From Escherichia coli (GTDB lineage: Bacteria; Pseudomonadota; Gammaproteobacteria; Enterobacterales; Enterobacteriaceae): a stretch of DNA of 64,000 nucleotides. The stretch lies in assembly GCF_003334815.1 (NCBI RefSeq), contig NZ_QOWO01000016.1, one strand, 5' to 3'. Shown piece after piece: positions 1-59,609 of the stretch. How positions within the stretch are numbered: position 1 is the stretch's first letter; every line of letters begins with the position of its first letter. The notes below the pieces were generated by a model. That model was not told the origin of the DNA and ran no database searches. It saw only the letters and a program-made list of their open reading frames with translations. The position numbers and the translations under genes are program-made.

Positions 1-1
1 A

Positions 2-223
2 AAAAATCGGCTCAAACATGAAGAAATGAAATGACTGAGTCAGCCGAGAAGAATTTCCCCGCTTATTCGCACCTTCCCTAAAGTCGGTCGACTGATGGCG
101 GAAGGGAAAATCACTGCTGACATGATGTTAACCCATCGCTATCCGTTCGCCACGCTGGCAGAAACCTACGAGCGCGATGTGATTAACAATCGTGATTTGA
201 TTAAGGGTGTAATTACTTTCTGA
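2..223 (+). CDS. 3' end of an upstream gene (possibly the yjjN/lgoD-like dehydrogenase that precedes opgB in E. coli)
   Basis: Open frame running from the window edge to TGA at 221..223, followed by a GC hairpin and T-run at about 250..290. Identity is inferred from synteny only. Confidence 0.35.
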
Positions 224-359
224 TAAGGCGAGATTATTAAAGTTGCCATGCAGCGTCCGGGGAAGTGTTGGGCGCTGTTTTTTTGTTTCTTAATAATGTG
301 TTGTAAGCCGTAGAAGGTGTGTAGGTCGCACCTTATGCGACCTACACATCAGTCAGGAA

Positions 360-2651
360 TTACCCTTCACGTTCTACCACTTTAATTTCCACCATGCCGA
401 TCCCGAGCTTACGCGGCGAGTGTCCGAGGATATTCCCTTCGTTGGTTGAGACAGGTTCCGGCGGCACAATTACCAGTGTGTCGGCATCGGTTGGGTTATC
501 GAAATGCAGTGTGGTGGTGGTCACTTCATTGCCCAGCACAAGAGTTTGTTCTTCATTGCCTACGCGTACCGGAATAGGACGGCTGGCGTTATTGCCGTAT
601 GCTTTGGCGGTAATCACCAGGTCAAATTTCTTCGGCAGCGGATGCTTGTACTCGATTTTTACTTCATCGCCCAGCTGCGCGTTGGACCAGCGGCCCCACG
701 ACTCCGGACGGGAAATCCCGCTAAACTGTTTCACCTCTTCTGGCGCACCGGCGACGTTAAAGATGAAACTGTCGGCTTTGTAGCGAATATCGTTATCAAC
801 AATCTTCAGCGTATCGACATTGCCTTTGTAACGCGCCATGTCGATGACCGTATCTTTAAATGCCGTTTTGCCCTTCCATGTTGTTTTGTCAACATGCTGA
901 ACAATTTGCTGACCGCCAAGCTGCCCCTGCGAGACACACCAGTCGGTGGAAAGTGCCAGTTCCGGAGCCCAGAGTTGTGCCATCTTGTAGCAACGGTCAA
1001 CCCAGACGAAATTGTCGCGTGGAGCGAAATCGGCCAGCTGGAAACGCAGCGGTGCTGAGTATTCGCTTTCCGGCAGCGGTTCCACGCGTTTGTCTGAAAC
1101 CCGCAACAGCAGCGGCAAACGGAAATGGCTACCCGAGAAGGCAATCATGTTTTTCTGCTGGTCGATGGTGAACTCTTTCATCTCTTTAGGGAATTTCCAC
1201 AGGCGGATGATATCTGGCTTCCACGCCAATGTTTTCTCTTTGATATTGAGGAAGATTTCCGACATCGACTGCCCGGATAAACTGCTACGACCAAGTCCGA
1301 GATAGTTATCGCCACCGAGAATGTCCAGCACCGTCGCGCCGTTATCCATCGTGTTACGCTTCACTGCCAGCGTCTCTTGCTGCGGCTTGTCGCCACGAAT
1401 GACAAAAAACAGGTTATTGCGATCCTGCTTATTGAGGTATTTCCACGCCGTGTTGTTCATCGCTAAATGGTCAGAAGAGACGACGATGACGGTATCTTTA
1501 AACCACGGTGATGCTTTGATTTTGTTGATAAACGTCGCGATGTTCTCCTGGCTGCAACTTACCGCGCTGAATGACTGATTAGGCTTACCGTCAAAATCAT
1601 ATTTTTTGCGGTTACAGGTGCGCGAGATAAAACCATCCGGGTGATGGGTATCGACCGTCAGGGTAAACAGTGAGAATCGCTGACCTGAGCGGGAAAGCTC
1701 TTCAAACTTTTTCCACGCTTCATCGAGAACGGTATCGTCGTAGAATCCCCAGTCGTTGCGATAGTGCGGGTCGGCCACCACGCTTTTCAGCTCTTCTGAG
1801 CCGTATAAGTGGTCGAAGCCGTGCGATTTCAGGAACACATCTTTACCGGCAAAACGCAGATTCGCGCCCTGCACGAAATAGTTCTGATAACCCGAGTTTT
1901 TCAGGATATCGCCCAGACAGATGTTCTGCGGGAAGAAGCTGGAGACAGAGGCGGAGGCGTTGCCTTCAAAGGGGGCAAACAGCGGTATGCCGCACTGAGA
2001 AGCCACCATGCCCGCAATCGTGTAATCCGTTCCTGGCAGCTGCTGCGTGTGGCTGAAATCCAGGCCTTCATTTTTCAACGCGCCCAGTTCAGGCGTGAGA
2101 TCCGGGAAAGCTTCGTTATCAAAATAGGTTCGCTCGAGACTTTCGCCGTAGATATAAACCAGGTTGAGTTTCGGGTCAGGGATAGTTTTCGACGGCTCTT
2201 TATAATAAGCCGCAAAGTCCGGGTCGCCGTCGCGTGACTGGGATTTCACCAGTTCCGTTATCTGACGAAATGCCGGGCTGGCATCCACTGAACCCAGCGC
2301 CAGTAAGAGCGCCAGCAGGCTGTAACCAAAATGGTGCGGATGATGACGACGACGGCGCAGGATCCAGCCCAGCGCACCGAACACCGCTGTCAGCCCCAGC
2401 ACAATGCCGATACCCGGCAGGATGTATTTGCTGACGCCAGCACCGGTCAGGCTGTTGGTTAAGGTATAGAGAACCGCGTCGTTAATACCATCGCCAGTAA
2501 AATAGTCGCTGGCAAACAGGGTGATATTTAAAACGACAAATAGCCCCAGCACCGTTAATGTGGCTGCAAACCACCAGGTGTTACGTCCCGCTTTCCATGC
2601 GTAAATCAGCACAGAGGCGAGAAAAAGGGCGAAAGAGAGTAGTTCTGACAA
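360..2651 (-). CDS. opgB: Phosphoglycerol transferase I (OPG biosynthesis)
   Basis: 763 aa ORF with N-terminal transmembrane segments and a sulfatase-like domain; conserved position before yjjA-dnaC-dnaT. Confidence 0.85.
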
Positions 2652-2904
2652 CGGGCGATCCTCACTAAACCGGGCCGTTTAGCCAACGTTTAAGCTTTTT
2701 GAGAAGCACAATGTAATGGCGTCGCCATATTGCTGCAATTCTAGTGTCAAAAAAATGCGATGTTGTTAGGAATTAGTTTATAAACAGACTTTTTTGATCG
2801 CGGTCGCTTCCCGTGTAACAGGGGGAAAACCGTCCAGGAGCAGGGAAAAGGGCAGGAGAGAGCCGCGTCAGCCGGGTAACAGCTAAAACGCGGCGTTTCG
2901 CGGT

Positions 2905-3402
2905 TCAGGAAATGAAGTTCAGCCCCTGCTTTAACACCAGATCGCAGGCTTTGGTTTTCACCTTTTCTGCCAGCGGAGTCGTTCCGATGTTATCCAGATT
3001 GAGTTGCTGACCATCTTTGGTTTTCAGCAAACCCTGAATACCGTCCAGATAGTTGGTGTCTTCTTTTTGCTCTTCACTGTTCAGGCCCAGCTTTTCCAGC
3101 ACCTGATTCTTGATGTTTTCGGCATCGGTTACCGAAGCCAGCTTTTGCTTCGCGCAGTATTGCAGAATGCCTGCGGCGTTGTTCATGTTATCTGCGCTTA
3201 AGGCCTGGTTCCCGCTGCTAAGCAAGTTAGTTAATGACGCGAGCGACCAACCGCCTTCCTGTGTCGTGCTGTTTTGGTTGCCAAGTTCGCTGGCGGCGCT
3301 GGAGAGCGCATCTTTCCAGGACGCAGCATGCACCCCGGTGGAAATTAATGCGCTGGCGGCAATGGCACAGCACAGAAGATGTTTAACAGTTTTCATCATC
3401 AT
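2905..3402 (-). CDS. yjjA: Secreted protein YjjA (DUF2501)
   Basis: 165 aa ORF with an N-terminal signal peptide (ending VHAAS); synteny next to dnaC. Confidence 0.6.
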   Translation of the reverse strand: MMMKTVKHLLCCAIAASALISTGVHAASWKDALSSAASELGNQNSTTQEGGWSLASLTNLLSSGNQALSADNMNNAAGILQYCAKQKLASVTDAENIKNQVLEKLGLNSEEQKEDTNYLDGIQGLLKTKDGQQLNLDNIGTTPLAEKVKTKACDLVLKQGLNFIS

Positions 3403-3447
3403 TACTCAAGGTGGAATTGTGTCGCAGTATACCGCCAGAAACGGGGA

Positions 3448-4185
3448 TTAATACTCTTTACCTGTTACACGGCTACGGTAGCTATCCCAGTTGAAGATCA
3501 CCCACAAACTGTTACCCAGGCGCATACGGTCCATCACGCGTTCGCCCAGCAACTTGGTCATCTCTTCCATATTACTGTTGGTCAGCATCCCGGTTGGGCG
3601 TTTGGAAGAAGAGCGGCGATCGACGATCTGGTTGATGATCACTTTTTCGTATTTCGATTCGGTCTGCACGCCGATCTCATCGATCACCAGCAGATCAACG
3701 TTGCTCAGATCGTTAAGCAGTTGTTCTTCGCTGGTACCGCTATTCCTGAAGGTATCTTTCATCGCCGACATAATATCGGCCACGGTGATGATCAATACGG
3801 ATTTACCGCGTAGCAGCAGCTCGTTGCAGATTGCCGCCGCCAGATGGTTTTTGCCGGTTCCTGGCTTACCAGAAAAGATGAAGCTGGCGATGTTGCCGTC
3901 AAACTCTTCGACATACTGGCGCGCTTTGCTTAACGCATTCATCTGCCCTTCACACTCAACGCGATAGTTCTCAAAGGAGCAGTTCTGATGCAGTGGACGA
4001 ATACCGGAGCGGTTAAAGGTGCGCTGCATTTTCATCGCCCGATTTTCACGTTCGAGAGCGGCGGAGCGGATCGCCCCTTGTTCTTTCTGCCAGGCCAGTA
4101 GTTCTTCACCCGTTTTAAACGCAGGTTTGATATGGGCAGGCATCATTTTTTGCAGGCGTTGCATCAGGTCGCCAACGTTTTTCAT
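3448..4185 (-). CDS. dnaC: DNA replication helicase loader DnaC
   Basis: 245 aa; Walker A motif GKPGTGKNH; IstB-like AAA+ fold; sits directly upstream of dnaT. Confidence 0.9.
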   Translation of the reverse strand: MKNVGDLMQRLQKMMPAHIKPAFKTGEELLAWQKEQGAIRSAALERENRAMKMQRTFNRSGIRPLHQNCSFENYRVECEGQMNALSKARQYVEEFDGNIASFIFSGKPGTGKNHLAAAICNELLLRGKSVLIITVADIMSAMKDTFRNSGTSEEQLLNDLSNVDLLVIDEIGVQTESKYEKVIINQIVDRRSSSKRPTGMLTNSNMEEMTKLLGERVMDRMRLGNSLWVIFNWDSYRSRVTGKEY

Positions 4186-4187
4186 CG

Positions 4188-4727
4188 TTACCCTCTGAAT
4201 CCTGGTGGAATTTGGCTGTCAGGTTCGCTGACCGTATTCACATCTCGTTTCGGCAGTCCGCCGTTGCTGGCACGGCCGATTTGCAGGCTGCGCGCCAGTT
4301 TTTGTTGCCACTGTACATGGTGAAAGACTTTACCTTCCGCCTGCCAGTAGGCAATGAATGAGGCCAGTTCTTCGGTGGTCACCGGCTCTCTTAGCGCCAC
4401 GCCCCATAGCGCCGCCAGGCGGATAAAGTCGGCATCGGGTTGCCAGTCCGGATACATGGCGAATTTCCCCATGGGTACAGCAACGGGAGCGGCTTGCGGT
4501 TCCTGATAGAGTTGATCGTCCAGAGCGACATCGCTTCCCGGACGCGCCAGCTTTTCTTCCAGCGCCAGCAGTTCAGCCAGGCGTGCAGGCGTGACGGCAT
4601 AAAACGCCGGGGCATTGTTAGCAAATACGGCAACCACACCGCCTTCAGCTTTTGCCAGAACGGTTTGGTGATCGTGTACCAGGGCGTCAATACCAACGAC
4701 GTCCGGGGTCAAAACTCTGGAAGACAT
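4188..4727 (-). CDS. dnaT: Primosomal protein DnaT
   Basis: About 179 aa from the MSSRVLT start; C-terminus ends SQIPPGFRG; forms an operon with dnaC. Confidence 0.8.
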
Positions 4728-4834
4728 ACTGTTTCTCAAATATGGAACGATGAACGAGAAGGGAGATAACTTTTATAGTAACACATGGAGGAGAGGAGGC
4801 TGTCTCTCATCCGTGTGCTTTAAGCGAGGCAATT

Positions 4835-5308
4835 TTATACGCGAGGGCGCTTGCGGTACAACCATAATCCAGGAATGGAAAGACCGATGGATAACGCACC
4901 AACAATCGATGAAGCTGTAAGAAAGTTGGTTAACAGGGTAATCATCAATGACTCGCTGTAACCTAACTGGCTGATTTTTACCGCCGAAATCATTGCGGTA
5001 TAAGCCGATATGCCAGGGAACATAGGGATAACGGCCGCCACGGTAAACACTTTCGGATGCGCCAGATACCAGCGCGACCATTGAATACCAATGGTGCCGA
5101 CCAGCATAGAAGCCATAAAAGTTGACCACTCAATATTCAGCCCGCTGGTCATTAAGATCATTCGTGAACCATGACCAATCGCGCCAAGCAGCGCACACCA
5201 GCGTAACGCCCGAACGGGAACGTTGAACACCATCGCAAAGCCGACCGCTGGAATGGCGGCGAGGATCATATCCTGCGCCAATGTAAACAGAAACTCGATC
5301 ACACCCAT
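4835..5308 (-). CDS. yjjB: Inner membrane protein YjjB (ThrE-family C-terminal half)
   Basis: Hydrophobic ~157 aa ORF, immediately downstream of and overlapping yjjP. Confidence 0.65.
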
Positions 5309-6069
5309 CCGCGTAGCCCCCAAATCGTCAGTGCCATCACCACGCCGACGCAGGTAGCCAGTGTCAGCAGACTGGCGATCGCCCAGCGTGCCAGTCCGGT
5401 ATTGATGTGGCCTTTAAACATATCGGCGACGGCATTAATCAACGGAAAGCCCGGCACCAGCAGCAGAACGCTGGCGGCCATCGCGATGGTGGGGGTATTG
5501 CTGAAAGTAGGGAGTTGCAAAAGCAATCCGGAAATGGTGGTGGCGGCGAAAGCGGTAAGGCAAAAGTTGATCTGTGGATGAAGATGACGTTGTGCCAGCA
5601 GCTGGCGGATATACATCGCGGCCGTACTGGCAAAGAAGGTGATGACGGCACCATCCCAGCCACCTTTATTGAGTTTACAGAAACAGGCGCAGGAAAGGCC
5701 AACCATTAAGGCTACCAGCCATCTTGGGTAACGTAATGGCTGAATTTGGCTAAATCGTTTCTCTACGCCTTTGTAATCCAGCAGATGGTGCTCCGCCAGA
5801 ATCACAATGTGCTGGACTTCAGTCACCACATGCATATTAATGCCGCGATCTTGATTTTTACGTGTCGATGTCAGGCATTGCCCATCTTTAATGGTTGTCA
5901 GCACTATGGCGTTCGAAGAGATAGAACTTTCGACGCTGTCCATCCCCAACGCCCGACCCAGTCGTGAGGAAAGCTCATCAACCAACGCGCTTTCCGCACC
6001 ATGTTGCAAAAGAAATAATCCACACTGGATACAAAGCCGTGTTACGGCTCGCTGTTGCTCAGTTTGCAT
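5299..6069 (-). CDS. yjjP: Inner membrane protein YjjP (ThrE-family)
   Basis: Multi-pass membrane ORF; the likely start is an internal Met of the 277 aa frame; conserved synteny. Confidence 0.65.
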
Positions 6070-6687
6070 AACTCGCCCTTTGTCATAGACGTGCTGCGTA
6101 TTGTTCAGATAATGAGAATCCATTTGTATCATGAAGCACGGTAGTTTTGCGGTAGGTTAAGATCAAAATTGCGCTGATTAATCCTGGTTATCGGGACAAG
6201 CTCGGTGATAAAAAGGGAATTATCTCTCGCCGCAAACAAATTATCACATGAATATTATCACTATAATGAATTTATTCTTTAGCCTTTACGAATCAGGATA
6301 AAAGATAACTGGGCGCGTTTTTTAATTTTTACAAGTTAAAACTATCAGATTTTATTGAACAAATATTGATTGTGTGATTTTGCATTCTGCGGGAAGGGAT
6401 ATCAGTTAATTATAAATTAAATGAATGAGAACTCTGTTTTTCATTAAGTATTTCTAACAACTTAATGTAGATATTTTAAATGTCTCCAGGCTATTTCAAC
6501 AGGTTATCATTTGATGCTAACCTTCTGACACATGCTGTGGAGTTGTTGTGCAGCAGGAGTATGCTGATATGAAAGTGAATGCTAAGGATAATTTATTCGC
6601 TTAATCTATTAATTTGCTGGAAACATTTAAGGAATGAATATCCTGAATAAACCATCATGATTTTTAGACAGTGGATGTGGAGGAAAT

Positions 6688-7413
6688 ATGTTGCCAGGAT
6701 GCTGCAAAAATGGAATTGTTATCAGTAAAATACCTGTTATGCAAGCAGGGTTAAAAGAGGTCATGAGGACTCACTTCCCTGAATATGAAATAATATCCAG
6801 CGCCTCTGCGGAGGACCTTACCTTATTACAATTACGTCGTTCCGGATTAGTCATTGCTGATTTAGCCGGTGAAAGTGAAGATCCACGTTCTGTTTGTGAA
6901 CATTATTATTCTTTAATCTCACAATATCGGGAAATTCACTGGGTTTTCATGGTGTCACGCTCCTGGTATTCCCAGGCAGTAGAACTGCTCATGTGCCCTA
7001 CGGCGACGTTATTGTCTGATGTTGAACCCATTGAGAATCTGGTCAAGACCGTACGTTCCGGCAATACGCACGCAGAGCGTATCAGCGCCATGCTGACCTC
7101 TCCGGCAATGACTGAAACTCATGATTTTAGCTATCGCTCCGTCATTCTCACTCTTTCAGAGCGCAAGGTACTGCGGCTATTAGGTAAAGGATGGGGCATC
7201 AACCAGATAGCTTCATTGCTTAAGAAAAGTAATAAAACTATCAGCGCCCAAAAAAACAGTGCGATGCGTCGACTGGCAATTCACAGCAACGCTGAAATGT
7301 ATGCATGGATAAATAGCGCGCAGGGTGCAAGAGAACTTAACTTGCCTTCTGTTTATGGAGATGCCGCAGAATGGAACACAGCCGAATTAAGAAGAGAAAT
7401 GTCGCACTCATAG
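6688..7413 (+). CDS. yjjQ: LuxR-family transcriptional regulator YjjQ
   Basis: 241 aa with a C-terminal LuxR/FixJ-type HTH; AT-rich upstream region; overlaps bglJ. Confidence 0.75.
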
Positions 7414-8048
7414 AAAAATGCGTCATGAGCAGTATCGGTATTGAGAGTTTATTCAGAAAGTTTGCAGGTAACCCTTATAAGCTCCATACCTATACCAGTC
7501 AGGAGTCATTTCAGGATGCCATGTCGCGGATCTCGTTTGCGGCGGTCATTTTTTCTTTTTCTGCCATGAGAAGTGAACGCAGAGAGGGATTATCTTGCCT
7601 GACTGAACTGGCGATTAAGTTTCCGCGTACCCGACGTTTAGTTATTGCGGATGATGATATTGAAGCTCGGCTGATCGGTTCATTGTCGCCATCACCGCTG
7701 GACGGTGTATTAAGTAAAGCGTCAACGCTGGAGATTTTTCATCAGGAACTCTTTTTGTCATTAAATGGTGTACGTCAGGCGACCGACCGACTGAACAATC
7801 AGTGGTACATTAACCAAAGCCGGACGCTAAGCCCGACGGAGAGAGAAATATTGCGCTTTATGTCGCGTGGCTACTCAATGACACAAATTGCCGAGCAGCT
7901 TAAACGCAATATTAAAACGATCCGTGCACATAAATTTAATGTGATGTCGAAACTGGGCGTCAGTTCTGATGCAGGGTTGTTGGAGGCCGCAGATATTCTG
8001 TTATGTATGCGGCATTGCGAAGCAAGTAATGTGTTGCATCCCTATTAA
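7371..8048 (+). CDS. bglJ: LuxR-family transcriptional activator BglJ
   Basis: 225 aa with a C-terminal LuxR-type HTH ([27 protein letters not shown]); operonic with yjjQ. Confidence 0.75.
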
Positions 8049-8085
8049 TTTGCATGATGCCGGGTTTACTTCCCCGGCAGTGCTT

Positions 8086-8874
8086 TCATTTCAGCGTACA
8101 ATCGCCACATTGCTGCACATCCGGTAAGCGATAACGCTGGCAGCAAGTGCGGCGCACCAGCAGGCCGTCGCGCAGCACCACGGTACGCCAGAGTGGATTA
8201 TCTTCACCGTTCGTGAGCGTTTTCTCAAAAAAGAGGGCATGGCGCAGCGATTCAACCGTCGCCTCGCCGAGCAGCTGTTTCATCTCAGTCAGATACCAGT
8301 TGATCAAATAACCGGTATTGCTCCAGATAAGTTTACCGTTAATCTCTCCCGTTGCTTCTAGTGCCTGCACAACCGGAACAAGCGCCTGGCTGATTAACGT
8401 TTCCATTCGCTGCTGCGGCGAATGTAGTGTTGCGTTTTTATCTTCACACACATCGACCCAGAAACAGGCGGCGCGTCCGGTTTCGTGAAACTCAACGTGG
8501 AAATGTTCCGGCGTCACATCTAATGCTTTTTCCTGCGTCAGCAGCGCCAGCATTAATGGTGGCACCATCAGGCCGATATACCATTGTGCCCACAGTGAGA
8601 TCAGCGGCTTGTTCTCGCGGATCATCGTTGGTTGGTTGCGGTAGATATGATCGGAATAGACCGCCAGTAGGGAACTTAGCGTATTCGGTGATGACCATTG
8701 CGCCAGCGTCATGGCGCGAAGCGGGGCGGGTTCATCCAGACGGATAAACTCCAGCAAATGTTCACGATGTTCGGCGATCGTCGCACGTACGGCTTGTGCA
8801 AGCCCAGCATCCTGTGGCTGGAGATGCGTTCGCCAGATGATATCTTCATAGAGCGGTGCGGAACGATAGGCCAT
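8086..8874 (-). CDS. fhuF: Ferric-siderophore reductase FhuF
   Basis: 262 aa with the unusual C-terminal 2Fe-2S cysteine motif CC-x10-C-x2-C (RRTCCQRYRLPDVQQCGDCTLK). Confidence 0.8.
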   Translation of the reverse strand: MAYRSAPLYEDIIWRTHLQPQDAGLAQAVRATIAEHREHLLEFIRLDEPAPLRAMTLAQWSSPNTLSSLLAVYSDHIYRNQPTMIRENKPLISLWAQWYIGLMVPPLMLALLTQEKALDVTPEHFHVEFHETGRAACFWVDVCEDKNATLHSPQQRMETLISQALVPVVQALEATGEINGKLIWSNTGYLINWYLTEMKQLLGEATVESLRHALFFEKTLTNGEDNPLWRTVVLRDGLLVRRTCCQRYRLPDVQQCGDCTLK

Positions 8875-8889
8875 AATCGGGATAGTAAT

Positions 8890-9000
8890 CTAAATGATAA
8901 TGATTGCTAATCCTAGCGATAGGTTTACCCGATAGCAAGGGATTTCTCTGGCTTGCAAATGATAAAAATTATCATATGATATTGGTTATCATTATCAATG
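8890..9000. promoter_or_regulatory. Divergent fhuF/yjjZ promoter region with Fur-box-like sites
   Basis: Three elements resembling the Fur consensus GATAATGATAATCATTATC: AATGATAATGATTGC, TGATAAAAATTATCA and GGTTATCATTATCAATG. Confidence 0.45.
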
Positions 9001-9014
9001 AAAGAGATGAAACC

Positions 9015-9251
9015 ATGTTGCAACGTATGCTGGGCAGTGGCTGGGGAGTGTTGCTGCCGGGATTGCTGATTGCAGGGCTGATGTATGCGGATTTATCGCC
9101 GGATCAGTGGCGGATTGTCATTCTGATGGGATTAGTATTGACGCCTGTGATGCTGTATCACAAACAGTTGCGGCATTACATTTTGCTACCATCGTGCCTG
9201 GCGCTTATTGCTGGCATCATGCTGATGATAGTGAATTTGAATCAGGGATGA
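9015..9251 (+). CDS. yjjZ: Small membrane protein YjjZ
   Basis: About 78 aa hydrophobic ORF from the internal Met (MLQRMLGSGWGVLLPG...), divergent from fhuF. Confidence 0.5.
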   Translation: MLQRMLGSGWGVLLPGLLIAGLMYADLSPDQWRIVILMGLVLTPVMLYHKQLRHYILLPSCLALIAGIMLMIVNLNQG

Positions 9252-9289
9252 CAAAACAGGGAAGAAACAAGAAAGGAAGTAAAGATAAT

Positions 9290-9376
9290 TGGTGCGAGGG
9301 GGGGGACTTGAACCCCCACGTCCGTAAGGACACTAACACCTGAAGCTAGCGCGTCTACCAATTCCGCCACCTTCGC
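9290..9376 (-). tRNA. tRNA-Leu (anticodon CAG)
   Basis: Reverse complement reads GCGAAGGTGGCGGAATTGGTAGACGCGCTAGCTTCAGGTGTTAGTGTCCTTACGGACGTGGGGGTTCAAGTCCCCCCCCTCGCACCA: a long-variable-arm cloverleaf with CAG anticodon and encoded CCA. Confidence 0.9.
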
Positions 9377-9480
9377 ATACCATCAATTCTTAAAAAGAAT
9401 TGCTACCACGGAGGCGCATTCTAGTGGTTTTCAGCTTTTCGTCAATAGTTAATTATCGCCGGAGGTGTAATTGCTGGAAA

Positions 9481-9676
<196 letters not shown>

Positions 9677-9680
<4 letters not shown>

Positions 9681-10708
9681 CCTTTCTTCGCCTGGCGGGT
9701 CATAATGGCGCGATACACCTTGAAGCGCCCGGTTTGCGCGATCACTTCATGGAAGCCAAATGTCTCATCCAGCACGTCCGGATAAGGCAGGAAGGCGTTC
9801 GCTACAATTCGCAGCTCGCCGCCGCTGTTAAGGTGACGCACCGCGCCGCGAATCAGCGTTTGCGCCGCATCGAGGCTGGTTTGCATCCCATCGTGGAACG
9901 GCGGGTTGGAGATGATCATATCAAAACGACCTTTCACCTCGGAAAAGACGTTACTGGCAAAGACTTCACCTTCAACACCGTTGGCCGCAAGTGTTGCGCG
10001 GCTGGCTTCTACCGCTGGCGCAGAGACATCGCACAGAGTGAGACGAATTTTCGGTGAATGGCGCGCAAAGGCAACCGAAAGCACGCCCGCGCCGCTGCCG
10101 ACATCCAGCACTTTACCTTTCGTGTGCGGAGTTAACGTCGAGAGCAGCAACTGGCTACCGACATCCAGACCGTCGCGGCTAAACACGCCAGGCAGCGTTT
10201 TGACCGTCAGGCCATCGACGCTGTATTCGCCCCAGAATTTATCGGCATCAAATACCGGCTGTTTTTCCAGACGACCAAAATAGAGGCCACAGCGACGGGC
10301 GCTGTCGACTTTATTCAACGGCGCATAATCTGCCAGCATCTGTTCGGCGCTGCGCACGCCGCTGCGGTTCTCGCCAACGACAAAAATATCCGTCCCCACC
10401 GGCAGCAGAGAAAGTAAATTCATCAACTGGAACTGGGCTTCCGGTTTGTTCTTCGGCCAGTAGTAAATCAAAGTATCGCAATCTGCGACGTCATCCGCCG
10501 TGGCGACCAGACTAAAACGGGCGTTATCACCCATCTGGCGGCTTAACACCTGCCAGTGGTGGAATTGCTGGGTATGAGCACGGCTGGCCGCGGTATCTAA
10601 ACGCGCGGGCAGGTCATCCTGTAAGTCTCCGGCAAAAAGAATACGGCTTTGTTCGAAATCATCACTGTGACGCAGCAAGACTTCACTTGCCGGGGTAAAT
10701 GCAGACAT
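9677..10708 (-). CDS. rsmC: 16S rRNA m2G1207 methyltransferase RsmC
   Basis: 343 aa with a SAM-binding motif ([11 protein letters not shown]) and NPPFH catalytic motif. Confidence 0.85.
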
Positions 10709-10810
10709 GGAATGCTCCTCAATTGATACTGGCGGCGATTATAGCCATATGTTGGCGCGGTATCGACGAATTTGCTATATTTGCGCCCCTGACAACAGGA
10801 GCGATTCGCT

Positions 10811-11224
10811 ATGACATCCCGACGAGACTGGCAGTTACAGCAACTGGGCATTACCCAGTGGTCGCTGCGTCGCCCTGGCGCGTTGCAGGGGGAGATTGCC
10901 ATTGCGATCCCGGCACACGTCCGTCTGGTGATGGTGGCAAACGATCTTCCCGCCCTGACTGATCCTTTAGTGAGCGATGTTCTGCGCGCATTAACCGTCA
11001 GCCCCGATCAAGTGCTGCAACTGACGCCAGAAAAAATCGCGATGCTGCCGCAAGGCAGTCGCTGCAACAGCTGGCGGTTGGGTACTGACGAACCGCTATC
11101 ACTGGAAGGCGCTCAGGTGGCATCACCGGCGCTCACCGAATTACGGGCAAACCCAACGGCACGCGCCGCGTTATGGCAACAAATTTGCACATATGAACAC
11201 GATTTCTTCCCTCGAAACGACTGA
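10811..11224 (+). CDS. holD: DNA polymerase III psi subunit
   Basis: 137 aa; conserved holD-rimI overlap arrangement. Confidence 0.8.
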   Translation: MTSRRDWQLQQLGITQWSLRRPGALQGEIAIAIPAHVRLVMVANDLPALTDPLVSDVLRALTVSPDQVLQLTPEKIAMLPQGSRCNSWRLGTDEPLSLEGAQVASPALTELRANPTARAALWQQICTYEHDFFPRND

Positions 11225-11639
11225 TTTACCAGCGGCTTTCCACATTGAACAACGCGCCCACGCCTTTCCGTGGAGTGAAAAAACCTTTGCCAGCAACCAG
11301 GGCGAGCGTTATCTCAACTTTCAGTTAACGCAAAACGGCAAAATGGCGGCGTTTGCGATTACGCAAGTGGTGCTGGATGAAGCTACATTGTTCAATATTG
11401 CGGTCGATCCCGACTATCAGCGTCAGGGACTGGGAAGGGCGCTGCTGGAACATCTGATCGACGAACTGGAAAAACGCGGCGTGGCGACGCTATGGCTGGA
11501 AGTCCGTGCCTCAAACGCTGCCGCCATTGCACTGTACGAAAGTTTAGGCTTTAACGAGGCGACGATTCGCCGCAATTACTACCCCACCACGGACGGTCGC
11601 GAAGACGCCATCATCATGGCGTTGCCAATCAGTATGTAA
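11193..11639 (+). CDS. rimI: Ribosomal protein S18 alanine N-acetyltransferase
   Basis: 148 aa GNAT fold ([13 protein letters not shown] acetyl-CoA motif). Confidence 0.85.
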
Positions 11640-11653
11640 GACAAGGTGGAATA

Positions 11654-12331
11654 ATGAAGTGGGACTGGATTTTCTTTGATGCCGATGAAACGCTGTTTAC
11701 CTTTGACTCATTCACCGGCCTGCAGCGGATGTTTCTTGATTACAGCGTCACCTTTACCGCTGAAGATTTTCAGGACTATCAGGCCGTTAACAAGCCACTG
11801 TGGGTGGATTATCAAAACGGCGCGATCACTTCATTACAGCTTCAGCACGGGCGGTTTGAGAGCTGGGCCGAACGGCTGAACGTCGAGCCGGGTAAACTCA
11901 ACGAAGCCTTTATTAATGCGATGGCGGAAATCTGTACGCCGCTGCCGGGAGCGGTTTCTCTGCTTAACGCCATTCGTGGCAACGCCAAAATCGGCATCAT
12001 CACCAACGGTTTTAGCGCCTTGCAACAGGTGCGTCTGGAACGCACGGGCCTGCGTGATTACTTCGATTTGCTGGTGATTTCCGAAGAAGTTGGCGTTGCT
12101 AAACCGAATAAGAAAATTTTCGATTATGCGCTGGAACAGGCGGGCAATCCTGACCGTTCACGCGTGCTGATGGTTGGCGACACTGCCGAGTCCGATATTC
12201 TCGGTGGCATCAACGCCGGGCTTGCGACCTGCTGGCTGAATGCGCACAATCGCGAGCAACCAGAAGGCATCGCGCCCACCTGGACCGTTTCTTCGTTGCA
12301 CGAACTGGAGCAGCTCCTGTGTAAACACTGA
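11654..12331 (+). CDS. yjjG: HAD-family pyrimidine 5'-nucleotidase YjjG
   Basis: 225 aa with the HAD motif [10 protein letters not shown] at the N-terminus. Confidence 0.8.
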
Positions 12332-12421
12332 TTGCCTCCCCCCCGTTGATGGGTAAAATAGCCGCAATTTTTCGTTTTCAACAAGCGCGGCGCGATGCCG
12401 CTTACTCAAGAAGAAAGAATT

Positions 12422-12496
12422 ATGACGTTGTCTCCTTATTTGCAAGAGGTGGCGAAGCGCCGCACTTTTGCCATTATTTCTCACCCCAATAATTAA
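12422..12496 (+). pseudogene. prfC: Displaced native 5' end of prfC (24 codons) left at attL
   Basis: Encodes [22 protein letters not shown] then NN-stop; the first 22 residues match the RF3 N-terminus as I recall it, and the frame breaks exactly at the att core. Confidence 0.7.
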
Positions 12497-14190: not shown

Positions 14191-15891
14191 ATGCATTTAG
14201 TCACGAAATCTTATTTCGATGCCTTTTGCAAAGCATTCGCTGCGCCCTATGAGGAGACCAAAAATTTTGAGGCGTTTGTGAACTATTGTGCTTTTTCAAA
14301 ATACTCAGGCGACAAAGTTGAGGTCAGTGATCTTGTGTATGAAGGCCCGGACCCTGGTATTGATGGCGCATTTTTATTTTTAGACGACAGAGCAATTTTT
14401 TCAACTGAAGAACTTCAGGAGATTTTCCAAAACTCACGTCGCGAGTTTCAAGTTTCATTAATATTCACGCAAGCTAAGTCATCGGAGAAGTGGAGCAAAC
14501 AGGAAATAGACTCTTACATTGCGTCAATAAGAGATTATCTTTCACCAGCGCCACAACAACCCCACAGTGAATATCTAGCGGACTTTAAAAAAATGTTCAA
14601 CTTGATATTTGCTAATATCGGCAGAGTCAAAAATGGCCTTCCAGACTTATACGCATATTTTTTTAGTGCTGCACAAAATACAGAGGCCAGAGAAATAAAA
14701 GCTGCATTTGCATCGGGTGAAAAAAGCTTAAAGTCACTCGGGTTTTCACATGAAACATCCTTCATTATGGCTCACAAAGACATGATTCATGAGCTTTGGC
14801 TTGCTGCGGAAGGTCCAATAGAAGCTAAACTTCCTACAATAGGCTATGCTCCATTCCCAGCGGCCCCTAATATTAATAATGCCTATGTAGCTACAGTCAA
14901 AGCTCGTAGTTTTATTGATTCTATACTTAAAGACAAAAATGGAAACCCTCGAAAAAAATTATTCGAAGAAAATGTTAGAGATTTTCTGGGAATTGATGGT
15001 GACGTAAATTCAGAAATTGCAGGAACACTAGATACTGATGGAAAAAAAGCAAGATTTGGTTTAATGAATAATGGAGTGACAATAGTTGCATCAAGCGTGA
15101 GGCCTGCAGGACAAGAAATTTTTATACGAGATTTTCAAATTGTTAATGGATGTCAAACGTCTAATGTTCTTATATCAAAAGACATTCAAGTAGATGAATC
15201 AGTTAGTTTAATGATTAAATTAATTGAAACCGATGAGCCAGCGATCCTTGATGACATTGTACGAGCTACGAATAGACAATCTAAAGTTGAAGATGCACAG
15301 TTCATTTCAACGCTAAAAAAATTAAGGGAATTAGAGCATTATTTTAATGCTAAAGGTGCTATTGAAGGAAATAAAATTTATTTTGAGAGAAGAAAGGGGC
15401 AGTATAGTTCAGAAAGTATAGCTCCAGTACGCATATTTGATATCAGAGAAGTTGCGCGAGCATATGCTGCTATTGTTATGATGAGACCAGATTATTCCAG
15501 TCGTTATCCAAATAGGTTAACTGGTGACTTACTTAATGAGGTTTTCTCTTCCGATGCCCTCGAGGATGATTATTATATATCTTGCTATTGCTTGTATAGG
15601 CTAAAGGCTCTTATCTCAAATAAGAGGTTTGATGGGAAGTATTCAAAATTACGCTGGCATATTCTAACTGCTGCGTCAAAATACTGTGGTAATAATTATA
15701 AGGTTTGGGGGTTCAAAAATAAAAATGAAGCTCTTCATAACTTATTCTCAATGAATGATGGGGAGTGGTTTGAAAAACTTGAGAGTTTAGTAAAAATAGC
15801 TATACCAGATCCGGATATTTCTCGAGACTTACTAAAGTCGCAGCCTTTAACATCAACGATTCTCAAAAGTGTTGATAGCGTACCTAAATAA
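14191..15891 (+). CDS. Large AT-rich cargo protein, possibly AIPR-like abortive-infection family
   Basis: 566 aa from the ATG preceded by AAAGGAG; visibly AT-rich; followed by hairpin GGGAAGCTTATTGCTTCCC. Family assignment is tentative and unverified. Confidence 0.4.
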   Translation: MHLVTKSYFDAFCKAFAAPYEETKNFEAFVNYCAFSKYSGDKVEVSDLVYEGPDPGIDGAFLFLDDRAIFSTEELQEIFQNSRREFQVSLIFTQAKSSEKWSKQEIDSYIASIRDYLSPAPQQPHSEYLADFKKMFNLIFANIGRVKNGLPDLYAYFFSAAQNTEAREIKAAFASGEKSLKSLGFSHETSFIMAHKDMIHELWLAAEGPIEAKLPTIGYAPFPAAPNINNAYVATVKARSFIDSILKDKNGNPRKKLFEENVRDFLGIDGDVNSEIAGTLDTDGKKARFGLMNNGVTIVASSVRPAGQEIFIRDFQIVNGCQTSNVLISKDIQVDESVSLMIKLIETDEPAILDDIVRATNRQSKVEDAQFISTLKKLRELEHYFNAKGAIEGNKIYFERRKGQYSSESIAPVRIFDIREVARAYAAIVMMRPDYSSRYPNRLTGDLLNEVFSSDALEDDYYISCYCLYRLKALISNKRFDGKYSKLRWHILTAASKYCGNNYKVWGFKNKNEALHNLFSMNDGEWFEKLESLVKIAIPDPDISRDLLKSQPLTSTILKSVDSVPK

Positions 15892-51104: not shown

Positions 51105-52042
51105 TTATGTTTGATAAAGAGGTTAACTTAGGAGACAACTCAAACGTAGTAAAAACAGAAGGGAATAACAACACAACAATAATAAATAATTTTGATGAGA
51201 AGTTTATAGGTCACGTTGTAAGATCCATGCTTTATGAAAGTATGCCTTCCTTTCAAGAAGAAGCTAGAAAAAAGATAATTGCGTCAACTGATGAATACAT
51301 TAGAGAGCTAATATCTGAGTTAGTAATTCAAAAAACAGATGCAGATACATTAAACCAAAAACTATCAACGCCTGACGTTCAATACTCTCTTTTTGAATCA
51401 GCTAAATGTTTTGCAAAAAATCCAGAAAGAACAGCAAAATCAACTCTGTTAAATTTAGTTGTAAAAAAAATAAATGAATTGGATGGAGATCATGAAGAGC
51501 TTTCCTCTATCGATCTGGCAATAAACGTCGCTACAAAACTTAGCGTAAAGCAAATAAGGTATATATCTTTAATATACTATATTAAAGATATTGTAAAAAT
51601 ATCACAAGATAGTGCCGGCGCTTATTGCATAATAGATCCTTCAAAAGATACAACAGAAGAAGTTGACGATTTCTTTTTATTCCCAAATGATATAAAAAGG
51701 AACAAGCAGGATGTTTATGATCTTTATATCGATCTATATAACAATCAAATGGATGTTGTATTTAAAGATGAAGAGATTGGCCCAGTTGATTATAGTATGC
51801 TTATAGCATTGGGTTGTATCATTCAACCTGCATTCCCTCAGCGAACATTTGTACAAAATGTAAAGAAAAGAACAGGATTAGATTTAAACGACAGCGAACA
51901 AAAATTAAAGCTATCGACATTCATTGAGAAAATAGAAAAAGCTATAGAGATAGATTCTGTCGATTATATAGTATTAACTACGGTTGGTAGACAAATAGCT
52001 AACGCCTATATATCAACAAGAATGAGATTAGTTAACTTATAA
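51101..52042 (+). CDS. Unknown 313 aa protein (second gene of AT-rich cargo operon; candidate defence/exclusion effector)
   Basis: Translationally coupled to the upstream small gene; N-terminus repeats the GDNSNVV...NNN motif; very AT-rich; no motif I recognise. Confidence 0.5.
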   Translation: MIMFDKEVNLGDNSNVVKTEGNNNTTIINNFDEKFIGHVVRSMLYESMPSFQEEARKKIIASTDEYIRELISELVIQKTDADTLNQKLSTPDVQYSLFESAKCFAKNPERTAKSTLLNLVVKKINELDGDHEELSSIDLAINVATKLSVKQIRYISLIYYIKDIVKISQDSAGAYCIIDPSKDTTEEVDDFFLFPNDIKRNKQDVYDLYIDLYNNQMDVVFKDEEIGPVDYSMLIALGCIIQPAFPQRTFVQNVKKRTGLDLNDSEQKLKLSTFIEKIEKAIEIDSVDYIVLTTVGRQIANAYISTRMRLVNL

Positions 52043-52104
52043 ATATCTCATATTTCTTCATCCAAGGTGGTGGCTTCATCATCCACCGCCTTCTTTTCTG
52101 CTCT

Positions 52105-52215
52105 TAAGAGTAGTGAACAAACCACTCGTCAGCAAACTCCCAAGTATCTTTCAGAGTCTCCTGAACAAAAGCCTTAGCAGAATCCTTATCTGCGGTGTAC
52201 GTAACAGGAAAATCA
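52105..52215 (-). pseudogene. DinI-like 3' fragment
   Basis: Minus-strand translation ...[30 protein letters not shown] matches the DinI C-terminus; no N-terminal part or start. Confidence 0.45.
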
Positions 52216-58416: not shown

Positions 58417-59195
58417 TTTGCCGTTTTATCGACACCCACTGCCATTTTGATTTCCCGCCGTTTAGTGGCGATGAAGAGGCCAGCCTGCAACGCGCGGCAC
58501 AAGCGGGCGTAGGCAAGATCATTGTTCCGGCGACAGAGGCGGAAAATTTTGCCCGTGTGCAGGCGTTAGCGGAAAAATATCAACCGCTGTATGCCGCATT
58601 GGGCTTGCATCCTGGTATGTTGGAAAAACATAGCGATGTGTCTCTTGATCAGCTACAGCAGGCGCTGGAAAGGCGTCCGGCGAAGGTGGTGGCGGTGGGG
58701 GAGATCGGTCTGGATCTCTTCGGCGACGATCCGCAATTTGAGAGGCAGCAGTGGTTACTCGACGAACAACTGAAACTGGCGAAACGCTACGATCTGCCGG
58801 TGATCCTGCATTCACGGCGCACACACGACAAATTGGCGATGCATCTTAAACGCCACGATTTATCGCGCACTGGCGTGGTTCACGGTTTTTCCGGCAGCCT
58901 GCAACAGGCCGAGCGGTTTGTACAGTTGGGCTACAAAATCGGCGTAGGCGGTACTATCACCTATCCACGCGCCAGTAAAACCCGCGATGTCATCGCAAAA
59001 TTACCGCTGGCATCGTTGTTGCTGGAAACCGACGCGCCGGATATGCCGCTCAACGGCTTTCAGGGGCAGCCTAACCGCCCGGAACAGGCTGCACGGGTGT
59101 TTGACGTGCTTTGCGAGTTGCGCCCGGAACCAGAAGATGAGATTGCCGAAGTGTTGCTTAATAATACGTATGCGGTGTTTAGCGTTCGTGGGTAG
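58413..59195 (+). CDS. yjjV: TatD-family metal-dependent hydrolase YjjV
   Basis: 260 aa with TatD motifs (DTHCH ... GEIGLD). Confidence 0.75.
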   Translation: MICRFIDTHCHFDFPPFSGDEEASLQRAAQAGVGKIIVPATEAENFARVQALAEKYQPLYAALGLHPGMLEKHSDVSLDQLQQALERRPAKVVAVGEIGLDLFGDDPQFERQQWLLDEQLKLAKRYDLPVILHSRRTHDKLAMHLKRHDLSRTGVVHGFSGSLQQAERFVQLGYKIGVGGTITYPRASKTRDVIAKLPLASLLLETDAPDMPLNGFQGQPNRPEQAARVFDVLCELRPEPEDEIAEVLLNNTYAVFSVRG

Positions 59196-59199
59196 TTTA

Positions 59200-59600
59200 C
59201 CCTTCGTAGGCAGCATCCGGCAGTCGGCGCATAATGCCTGATGCGACGCTTGTCGCGTCTTATCATGCCTACAGGTTTGTGCCGAACCGTAGGCCGGATA
59301 AGGCGTTCACGCCGCATCCGGCAGTTGGCGCACAATGCCTGATGCGACGCTTGACGCGTCTTATCATGCCTACAAGTCTGTGCCGAACCGTAGGCCGGAT
59401 AAGGCGTTCAGGCCGCATCCGGCAGTTGGCGCACAATGCCTGATGCGACGCTGACGCGTCTTATCATGCCTACAAGTCTGTGCCGAACCGTAGGCCGGAT
59501 AAGGCGTTCACGCCGCATCCGGCAGTCGGCGCATAATGCCTGATGCGACGCTTGTCGCGTCTTATCATGCCTACAAGTCTGTGCCGAACCGTAGGCCGTA
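59200..59600. repeat. REP/BIME cluster (four tandem palindromic units)
   Basis: Four repeats of GCCTGATGCGACGCTTGxCGCGTCTTATCATGCCTACA...GCCGGATAAGGCGTTCACGCCGCATCCGGCAG. Confidence 0.75.
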
Positions 59601-59609
59601 TCCGGCATG

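Follow-up and report, generated by a model that had tools for sequence, protein, structure and literature searches.

The AT-rich intergenic region between yjjP and yjjQ-bglJ of Escherichia coli and its hypervariable core

BglJ, together with RcsB, activates bgl, leuO and other loci. It is encoded in the yjjQ-bglJ operon; according to the K-12 annotation YjjQ is a transcriptional repressor. The abstract of the 2008 paper by Stratmann reportedly places H-NS binding in the centre of the AT-rich region between yjjP and yjjQ, distal to both promoters, and LeuO sites are said there to lie in this centre, distal to the yjjQ promoters, as well as over the yjjP promoter. Four reports, all of which refer to Stratmann et al. 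(2008), state that H-NS represses yjjQ-bglJ in laboratory culture conditions, and they name LeuO as its only known activator (PMC5025477, PMC3950696, PMC2646131, PMC4264507). The leuO gene itself is silenced by H-NS/StpA (PMC5025477, PMC3950696, PMC2646131, PMC4264507). For K-12, yjjQ-bglJ is stated to be derepressed in mutants of hns (or of hns and stpA) (PMC3950696, PMC5025477). When LeuO activates the native operon, too little BglJ is formed to close a proposed positive feedback loop and H-NS repression dominates (PMC5025477); this shortfall was counted against the explanation which we favour below. For bgl, one report describes an additional H-NS site which is located downstream, inside the coding region (PMC9678765). 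Silencing of yjjQ-bglJ by the region examined here was characterised in 2008 and is already known. Therefore, meeting it again adds nothing to that, and the initial annotation of this DNA rightly called it expected rather than novel.

Position, boundaries and composition of the spacer

The locus was analysed in a window of 64,000 nucleotides from an E. coli contig (NZ_QOWO01000016.1, assembly GCF_003334815.1). Positions 1-12,486 of the window are the E. coli region which extends from opgB via yjjP and yjjQ-bglJ to prfC. The stretch 1210-12,486 was collinear with K-12 MG1655 at about 98% identity (K-12 coordinates 4,599,209-4,609,479), and the corresponding region of strain W5-6 was 99.8% identical to the window. 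In the annotations of W5-6 and K-12 MG1655 the genes are ordered opgB-yjjA-dnaC-dnaT-yjjB-yjjP on one side of the spacer and yjjQ-bglJ-fhuF-yjjZ-tRNA-Leu-rsmC-holD-rimI-yjjG-prfC on the other. Thus, the spacer is flanked by divergent genes, yjjP for an exporter of the ThrE family and yjjQ for a LuxR-type regulator, the latter followed by the overlapping bglJ. The yjjP of the window was 100% identical to that of W5-6 and had 98% protein identity to K-12 b4364. By megablast, 5424 of the 5426 complete E. coli genomes searched contained 6070-6690, with a median copy number of one, and the match was located between the annotated genes yjjP and yjjQ. The identification of the locus as yjjP and yjjQ-bglJ, initially made from the letters alone, was borne out by the annotated RefSeq matches with protein identities of 98-100%.

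The start codon of yjjQ is the ATG at 6688. In an older version, yjjP starts further upstream at an ATG in the same frame (6132), which belongs to the longest ORF (277 aa) and leaves a spacer of 555 bp (6133-6687). A 555-bp intergenic region is reportedly also what the Stratmann paper of 2008 gave. In the cross-genus alignment the segment 6070-6122 contained indels and lacked protein-like conservation. This supports the shorter yjjP of 256 aa, i.e. the DNA upstream of 6069 is non-coding. The spacer of about 550 bp without an ORF, as it was first described, is therefore correct under the older yjjP start, whereas the current annotation gives 618 bp (Table 1). Compared with K-12, the length was unchanged and the identity was 95.8% over the full 618 bp.

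Table 1. Features of the yjjP/yjjQ-bglJ locus in window coordinates.
Feature	Position	Strand	Basis
yjjP CDS, 256 aa, ThrE-family exporter subunit	5299-6069	-	RefSeq start
yjjP/yjjQ divergent intergenic regulatory region, 618 bp, 33.7% GC	6070-6687	.	RefSeq yjjP start
Conserved yjjP-proximal block: TTGATCT (6166-6160), about 32 nt, then TGATACAAA (6131-6123), resembling an extended -10	6123-6166	-	
AT-richest core (about 74% AT), presumed H-NS nucleation/spreading platform; hypervariable up to about 6455	6230-6480	.	
Distal promoter-like site facing yjjP, ATGAAA-17-TTTAAT	6416-6444	-	RpoD SELEX (PMC3946193); exact single match in window
Marbox GCATCAAATGATAAC	6503-6517	-	Exact unique window match to the marbox under the ETEC H10407 MarA peak
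yjjQ sigma-70 promoter-like site CTGATA-17-GATAAT	6564-6592	+	Consensus scan; same hexamers in RpoD SELEX table (PMC3946193)
yjjQ 5' leader (inferred), Shine-Dalgarno GGAGG at 6679-6683	6593-6687	+	
yjjQ (6688-7413) and overlapping bglJ (7371-8048), silenced LuxR-type regulator operon	6688-8048	+	

The GC content was 33.0% for the 555-bp and 33.7% for the 618-bp spacer. The respective values for the window, yjjP, yjjQ and yjjQ plus bglJ were 50.5%, 52.5%, 44.9% and about 45%. Equally AT-rich stretches of 555 bp accounted for 1.8% of all such stretches in the window. On the host side the spacer was the sole place of this kind; the other low-GC stretches, 14.6-15.7 kb and 50.5-51.9 kb, are located within prophage. 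Among the host-side intergenic intervals of 200 bp or more it was the most AT-rich one. It was also the largest non-coding block of the host side, as had been proposed initially (618 bp versus 418 bp for yjjV-yjjW and 392 bp for prfC-osmY; K-12 annotation mapped). AT content was unevenly distributed, with 58% at 6070-6239, about 74% at 6240-6480, a dip to 47-57% at about 6500-6560 and 70-75% at 6560-6660. Therefore, the earlier characterisation of some 550 bp as very AT-rich applies to the overall 33-34% GC, but the very AT-rich part is limited to about 240 bp plus about 100 bp. As expected of an H-NS-silenced region, AT content at and next to the promoter-like sites was far above average for a few hundred bp (33-34% GC against 50.5%; core 74% AT).

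A-tracts, TpA steps and W-runs were in no excess over what the base composition of the spacer predicts. Lang and colleagues reportedly described in 2007 a TCGATAAATT-like 10-mer as a high-affinity nucleation motif of H-NS. In the spacer only two matches to this 10-mer were present, both with two mismatches (6349-6358 on the minus strand and 6605-6614 on the plus strand), i.e. the motif was not enriched. The high-affinity 10-mer is dispensable for H-NS binding. The feature which sets the spacer apart is compositional and not motif-based. That the 10-mer, A-tracts and TpA steps were not enriched was counted against the explanation favoured below.

A variable core between conserved ends

Identity between the window and K-12 was 99.9% in yjjQ, 98.7% in the right third of the spacer (6460-6687), 98.2% at 6070-6239 and 98.2% in yjjP. 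In the core (6240-6459) the identity was as low as 91.3%; this difference from the K-12 core, the one studied before, likewise was counted against the favoured explanation. Nine E. coli alleles were compared. In the core, pi was 0.080 with peaks of 0.10-0.11, and 51 of 222 columns were polymorphic. The respective values were 0.006 and 5 of 228 columns for the right third, 0.006 and 18 of 726 columns for yjjQ (third codon positions 0.017), and 0.019 and 43 of 771 columns for yjjP (third codon positions 0.049).

The nine alleles had been chosen by similarity rank in the core. Hence, the result was checked by sorting all genomes into bands of identity to the window allele. In the core, 220 genomes were at least 99% identical, 485 were in the band of 95-99%, 4209 in that of 90-95% and 503 in that of 80-90%. 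For the right third, 1335 genomes were at least 99% identical, 4083 were at 95-99% and a single one at 90-95%. The genes differed from the core in the same way as in the nine alleles: yjjQ was at least 99% identical in 5063 of 5422 genomes (356 at 95-99%, three at 90-95%), and yjjP was at least 99% identical in 375 genomes, at 95-99% in 5047 and at 90-95% in three. Accordingly, 87% of 5420 genomes were at most 95% identical to the window allele in the core, and the window core is a minority allele (at least 99% identity in only 220 of the 5420). Within the locus, it is clearly the core which varies most. Its alignment was almost free of indels and consisted of scattered SNPs, of which 35 of 51 were transitions and some were multi-allelic; the right-hand boundary at about 6455 was sharp. 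Other host-side spacers which could be mapped cleanly were 97-100% identical to K-12. The spacer has previously been a source of host-informative markers (PMC11267920); therefore, its polymorphism is not wholly new.

Across the promoter-like site of yjjQ (6564-6592) pi was about 0 in the nine E. coli alleles, and its -10 region, AAGGATAA..ATTC, was kept in the alignment of Escherichia, Citrobacter and Salmonella. The GGAGG 5' of the yjjQ ATG was invariant across a 23-species alignment. Genomic SELEX with the RpoD holoenzyme of K-12 lists the spacer with an H-NS flag and with promoters directed toward yjjQ and toward yjjP (PMC3946193). The distal candidate which faces yjjP is 347 nt away from the ATG of this gene, on its upstream side, and thus within the hypervariable core. 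In ETEC H10407, the yjjP/yjjQ spacer gave a strong MarA ChIP-seq peak ('+++'), and gcatcaaatgataac was reported as its marbox (PMC5684230). In the window the marbox is situated in a nearly invariant segment of the spacer, and marbox and promoter hexamers were identical to those of K-12.

At the yjjP end a block was conserved across genera with the consensus TTGATC(T/C), about 32 nt, TGnTA(A/C)AA on the yjjP strand. TTGATC(T/C) was present in 75 of the 75 loci listed, and the exact heptamer TTGATCT (AGATCAA on the plus strand) in 59. The block was also found where pobA/pobR-like genes separate yjjP from yjjQ; the adjoining DNA was unconserved. Two readings of it were tried and rejected. The pair TTGATC-17-TACCGT as -35/-10 of yjjP fits E. 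coli, but this -10 is not conserved in Enterobacter/Klebsiella; therefore, the TGnTAAAA element is the better candidate for the yjjP -10. A half-site for FNR or CRP, considered by eye for the TTGATC block, lacked a second half-site conserved across genera. Judged from its sequence, the block at 6123-6166 is probably the core or proximal promoter of yjjP together with an upstream site.

To cover other genera, one genome per species was scanned for YjjQ relatives and 80 loci were found. They belonged to Escherichia, Citrobacter, Salmonella diarizonae, Klebsiella, Raoultella, Enterobacter, Lelliottia, Leclercia, Kluyvera, Phytobacter, Kosakonia, Trabulsiella, Pseudocitrobacter and others. The divergent arrangement of yjjP and yjjQ-bglJ was observed in 80 of 80 loci holding both genes. 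This synteny across genera indicates an old locus which was not acquired horizontally in recent times. The set which we summarize here consisted of the 71 species-level loci with a full yjjP N-terminus. In 52 of them yjjP and yjjQ were direct neighbours, separated by 387-709 bp (median 442) with 32-44% GC (median 36.5%); GC in yjjP was 50-61%. In 19 of the 71 loci (Klebsiella, Raoultella, Kluyvera, C. amalonaticus/sedlakii and others) about 2.6 kb with ORFs of 394 and 293-297 aa were positioned between yjjP and yjjQ. We take the inserted ORF of 394 aa, which is flavin monooxygenase-like, to be PobA and that of 293-297 aa to be an AraC-type PobR-like regulator. The 250 bp upstream of yjjQ had 25-44% GC in the 71 species, with group medians of 32% and 35%, whatever the upstream gene; in the 19 loci with the pobA/pobR-like insert the range was still 29-40%. 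This indicated that the AT-rich region is old and has accompanied yjjQ.

In 71 species of Enterobacteriaceae yjjQ was thus preceded by a long AT-rich spacer, the sequence of which was unconserved. Sequence conservation across genera was limited to the two ends of the spacer, next to yjjQ and next to yjjP. Even in other Escherichia species the core could not be aligned by blastn; the flanks were 80-88% identical.

A probable shared control region and its alternatives

Very probably the spacer is a shared control region of the divergent yjjP-yjjB and yjjQ-bglJ units, with the AT-rich core as a silencing platform for H-NS. One of the two units encodes an exporter (yjjP-yjjB), the other two LuxR-type regulators (yjjQ-bglJ). 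Each core promoter is predicted near its gene, that of yjjP no more than about 100 nt from the start codon and that of yjjQ about 100-125 nt in front of the start codon. The two are separated by an AT-rich core of about 240 bp, apparently devoid of sequence-specific content. H-NS bound to this AT-rich DNA would keep both promoters off under laboratory conditions, yjjQ-bglJ above all; yjjP would be damped. LeuO, when made, would bind to the same region and relieve repression; a site for MarA is present in the spacer as well. H-NS reads composition and DNA shape, not exact sequence; therefore, the core would be free to change. Hypervariable in E. coli and unalignable between genera, it nevertheless retains its length and AT-richness. 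We infer that the core is the H-NS platform, and on the window allele H-NS occupancy and silencing are presumably the same as in K-12. The initial reading as an H-NS-silenced regulatory region is supported by the literature on the K-12 operon and by the H-NS flag for the spacer (PMC3946193).

Insertions in the spacer have consequences. During evolution in the mouse gut, IS1, IS2 and IS5 insertions arose here repeatedly, were beneficial and increased yjjP expression about two-fold aerobically (PMC5094792). The positions were -111, -185 and -256 from the yjjP ATG (PMC5094792 supplement). Transferred to the window they correspond to about 6180, 6254 and 6325, all upstream of the block at 6123-6166. 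This fits an uncoupling of the proximal yjjP promoter from the AT-rich silencer. Natural disruptions of the spacer in E. coli genomes were rare. In VREC0761 the yjjQ promoter is interrupted by ISSen4 (about 6569); in XH987 a segment of an IncI1 plasmid is joined at about 6298; strain 203740 has IS1B and a deletion which removed the spacer together with the 5' portion of yjjQ and left bglJ intact.

The main rival explanation considers the core as unconstrained filler at an AT-biased mutational equilibrium and H-NS binding as a by-product. It would account for a core pi (0.080) at or above the third-codon diversity of the flanking genes (0.049 and 0.017), for a core which cannot be aligned between Escherichia species or genera, and for motifs and A-tracts which are not enriched. 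However, bacterial genomes have a deletion bias, and the long AT-rich spacer upstream of yjjQ was kept in 71 species from many genera despite it. Further, insertions in the spacer alter fitness and expression (PMC5094792), and silencing of both promoters in an H-NS-dependent manner is reported in the literature (PMC5025477, PMC3950696). Taken together, we consider mere filler quite improbable.

Could the spacer hide an unannotated small RNA or a small-protein gene? For an intergenic region of E. coli, 618 bp is a considerable length, and promoter-like sites are present on both strands. However, an Rfam scan of 5500-7500 at permissive thresholds gave no match better than E = 0.98, and this was to a human lncRNA model. 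A terminator scan of the spacer returned no site. The putative leaders of yjjQ and yjjP folded no better than shuffled sequences (z = +0.78 and +0.72, respectively). The ORFs touching the spacer were only 30, 36 and 45 aa long, unconserved and unannotated in K-12 or the other strains examined; in other Escherichia species an indel of 1 nt interrupts the 30-aa ORF (6480-6572). An AT-rich stretch without ORFs is expected by chance, since stop codons themselves are rich in A and T. Direct and inverted repeats in the spacer were limited to short imperfect two-copy matches, as expected in AT-rich DNA, and the K-12 annotation has no feature within the spacer. A hidden gene is therefore very unlikely. 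We give almost no credence to the spacer as a scar of decayed genes, e.g. a pobA/pobR pair, or of a horizontally acquired island: 19 of 71 loci do carry the two-ORF segment of about 2.6 kb between yjjP and yjjQ, and yjjQ-bglJ is below genome GC with 45%, but tblastn of the pobA/pobR-like ORFs against the window spacer gave a best E of 0.67, ORF fragments were absent from the spacer and the synteny of yjjP and yjjQ across genera marks an old locus.

Within the reading of the spacer as a shared control region, a further proposal concerns the core alleles. The core might be under diversifying or lineage-specific selection such that its alleles set the strength or the trigger of yjjQ-bglJ and yjjP silencing according to host or niche. 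We regard this as rather doubtful. Observations which point in this direction are a core pi above the third-codon diversity of both neighbours, the host-informative alleles (PMC11267920) and the gut-adaptive insertions (PMC5094792). If true, the core would be a natural dial for tuning the silencing, next to a promoter and a gene which hardly vary.

Comparison with known silenced and variable regions

The region controls two regulators as well as an exporter for which higher expression was selected repeatedly during growth in the mouse gut. What is added here is modest and comparative, namely that the presumed silencer is conserved in length and composition, not in sequence. It is among the most polymorphic pieces of an otherwise very conserved E. 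coli locus and may help to distinguish between neutral evolution and tuning of H-NS platforms.

The closest described system is the yjjQ-bglJ/yjjP region of K-12 (Stratmann, Madhusudan and Schnetz 2008, J Bacteriol 190:926). Locus, flanks, 618-bp length, promoter hexamers and marbox are the same. The difference lies in the central 220 bp, for which the window has a minority allele with 91.3% identity, whereas the experiments were done on the K-12 allele. The region is also comparable to bgl, leuO and cas; these share an AT-rich regulatory region, silence under laboratory conditions, relief by LeuO and activation by IS insertion. Unlike in those systems, a single AT-rich block here serves two divergent promoters. 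Hypervariable or 'switched' intergenic regions of E. coli core genes were reportedly described by Oren and colleagues in PNAS in 2014 and by Thorpe and colleagues in 2017-2018. As in 'switched' regions, the alleles of this core-genome spacer diverge far more than the flanking genes. Yet in place of a wholesale swap for unrelated sequence, the yjjP/yjjQ spacer displays a dense scatter of SNPs within a sharply bounded segment of about 230 bp.

Conserved and variable parts of the yjjP-yjjQ interval

On the yjjP side of the spacer a short block on the minus strand reads TTGATC(T/C), followed after approximately 32 nt by TGnTA(A/C)AA. It includes a GATC and is kept in 75 loci of many genera, and the DNA around it is not conserved. 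The older yjjP start codon (6132) sits inside this block, which favours the shorter RefSeq version of yjjP.

The distance between the two genes varies among genera. About 2.6 kb separates yjjP from yjjQ in Klebsiella, Raoultella, Kluyvera, Citrobacter amalonaticus/sedlakii, Intestinirhabdus and others (compared loci L009, L026, L041, L071 and 15 further ones). This interval holds an ORF of 394 aa which is flavin monooxygenase-like (MKTQVAIIGAGPSG...) and which we take to be PobA-like, and a second one of 293-297 aa, presumably AraC/PobR-like. In Pseudocitrobacter the interval measures about 1.8 kb and the 394-aa ORF is the only one present.

E. coli strains show unusually little variation in yjjQ: of 5422 genomes, 5063 carry a copy with 99% or more identity to the gene of the window, and one YjjQ protein accession, WP_000936635.1, recurs in unrelated strains. 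In a sample of nine E. coli alleles, chosen by rank of core similarity, diversity at third codon positions was 0.017 for yjjQ compared with 0.049 for yjjP. A recent sweep, spread by recombination or strong constraint may each account for this uniformity.

The prfC prophage and other features of the window

A prophage of about 41.9 kb is integrated within the 5' part of prfC. Judged from its gene content it is lambdoid: matching annotated prophages of other strains encode a tyrosine integrase, YfdQ/YfdR/YfdP-like proteins, a Rha-family regulator, an antiterminator, lysis genes and terminase. Both ends carry the same 42 bp of prfC (positions 11438-11479 of the K-12 locus, L002), as expected of an att core. 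Among related prophages at the same prfC site the cargo adjacent to the integrase differs (AIPR, Dsr1, dCTP deaminase, CHAT/KAP), which suggests that this position is a hotspot for defence genes. Two internal blocks of 30-35% GC are the sole other places in the window which match the yjjP-yjjQ spacer in AT-richness.

Three tRNA-Leu(CAG) genes stand in tandem in K-12, W5-6, STLEFF_47 and 203740, against one in the window. In K-12 this array is leuV-leuP-leuQ, and the segment with the other two copies is absent from the window. Most simply, the tandem array collapsed by recombination, or it was collapsed in the assembly.

The spacer between yjjV and yjjW comprises 418 bp with 59% GC. Compared with K-12 by blastn it gave several overlapping, offset self-matches with a unit spacing of about 100 bp, a pattern which would fit tandem repeats of the REP/BIME type.

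Natural disruptions of the spacer and yjjQ

In several E. coli strains the spacer or yjjQ is interrupted by mobile DNA (last four rows of the table).

Features of the window and disruptions at the same locus in other strains (L-numbers are handles of compared loci)
Feature	Window position	Strain
Conserved block upstream of yjjP (minus strand)	6123-6166	
yjjQ	6688-7413	
tRNA-Leu(CAG)	9290-9376	
Prophage in prfC	12,486-54,369	
Low-GC blocks in the prophage	14,650-15,700; 50,500-52,200	
yjjV-yjjW spacer	59,192-59,609	
Spacer fused to conjugation genes of IncI1 type	~6298	XH987 (L086)
ISSen4 insertion, within the yjjQ -35/-10 region	~6569	VREC0761 (L087)
IS5 insertion, within yjjQ		NMBU-W12E19 (L094)
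IS1 insertion, within yjjQ		ZH142 (hit H69)

A further disruption was found in E. coli 203740, a human stool isolate (L084, NZ_CP025913.1, locus 6061-7016). There, an IS1B lies 60 bp upstream of yjjP; this strain has lost the entire spacer together with the 5' part of yjjQ but retains an intact bglJ. Laboratory insertions can render bglJ constitutive, as in the bglJC allele (PMC3950696). By its arrangement, the IS1B/deletion of 203740 looks like a natural counterpart of these bglJ-constitutive laboratory insertions.
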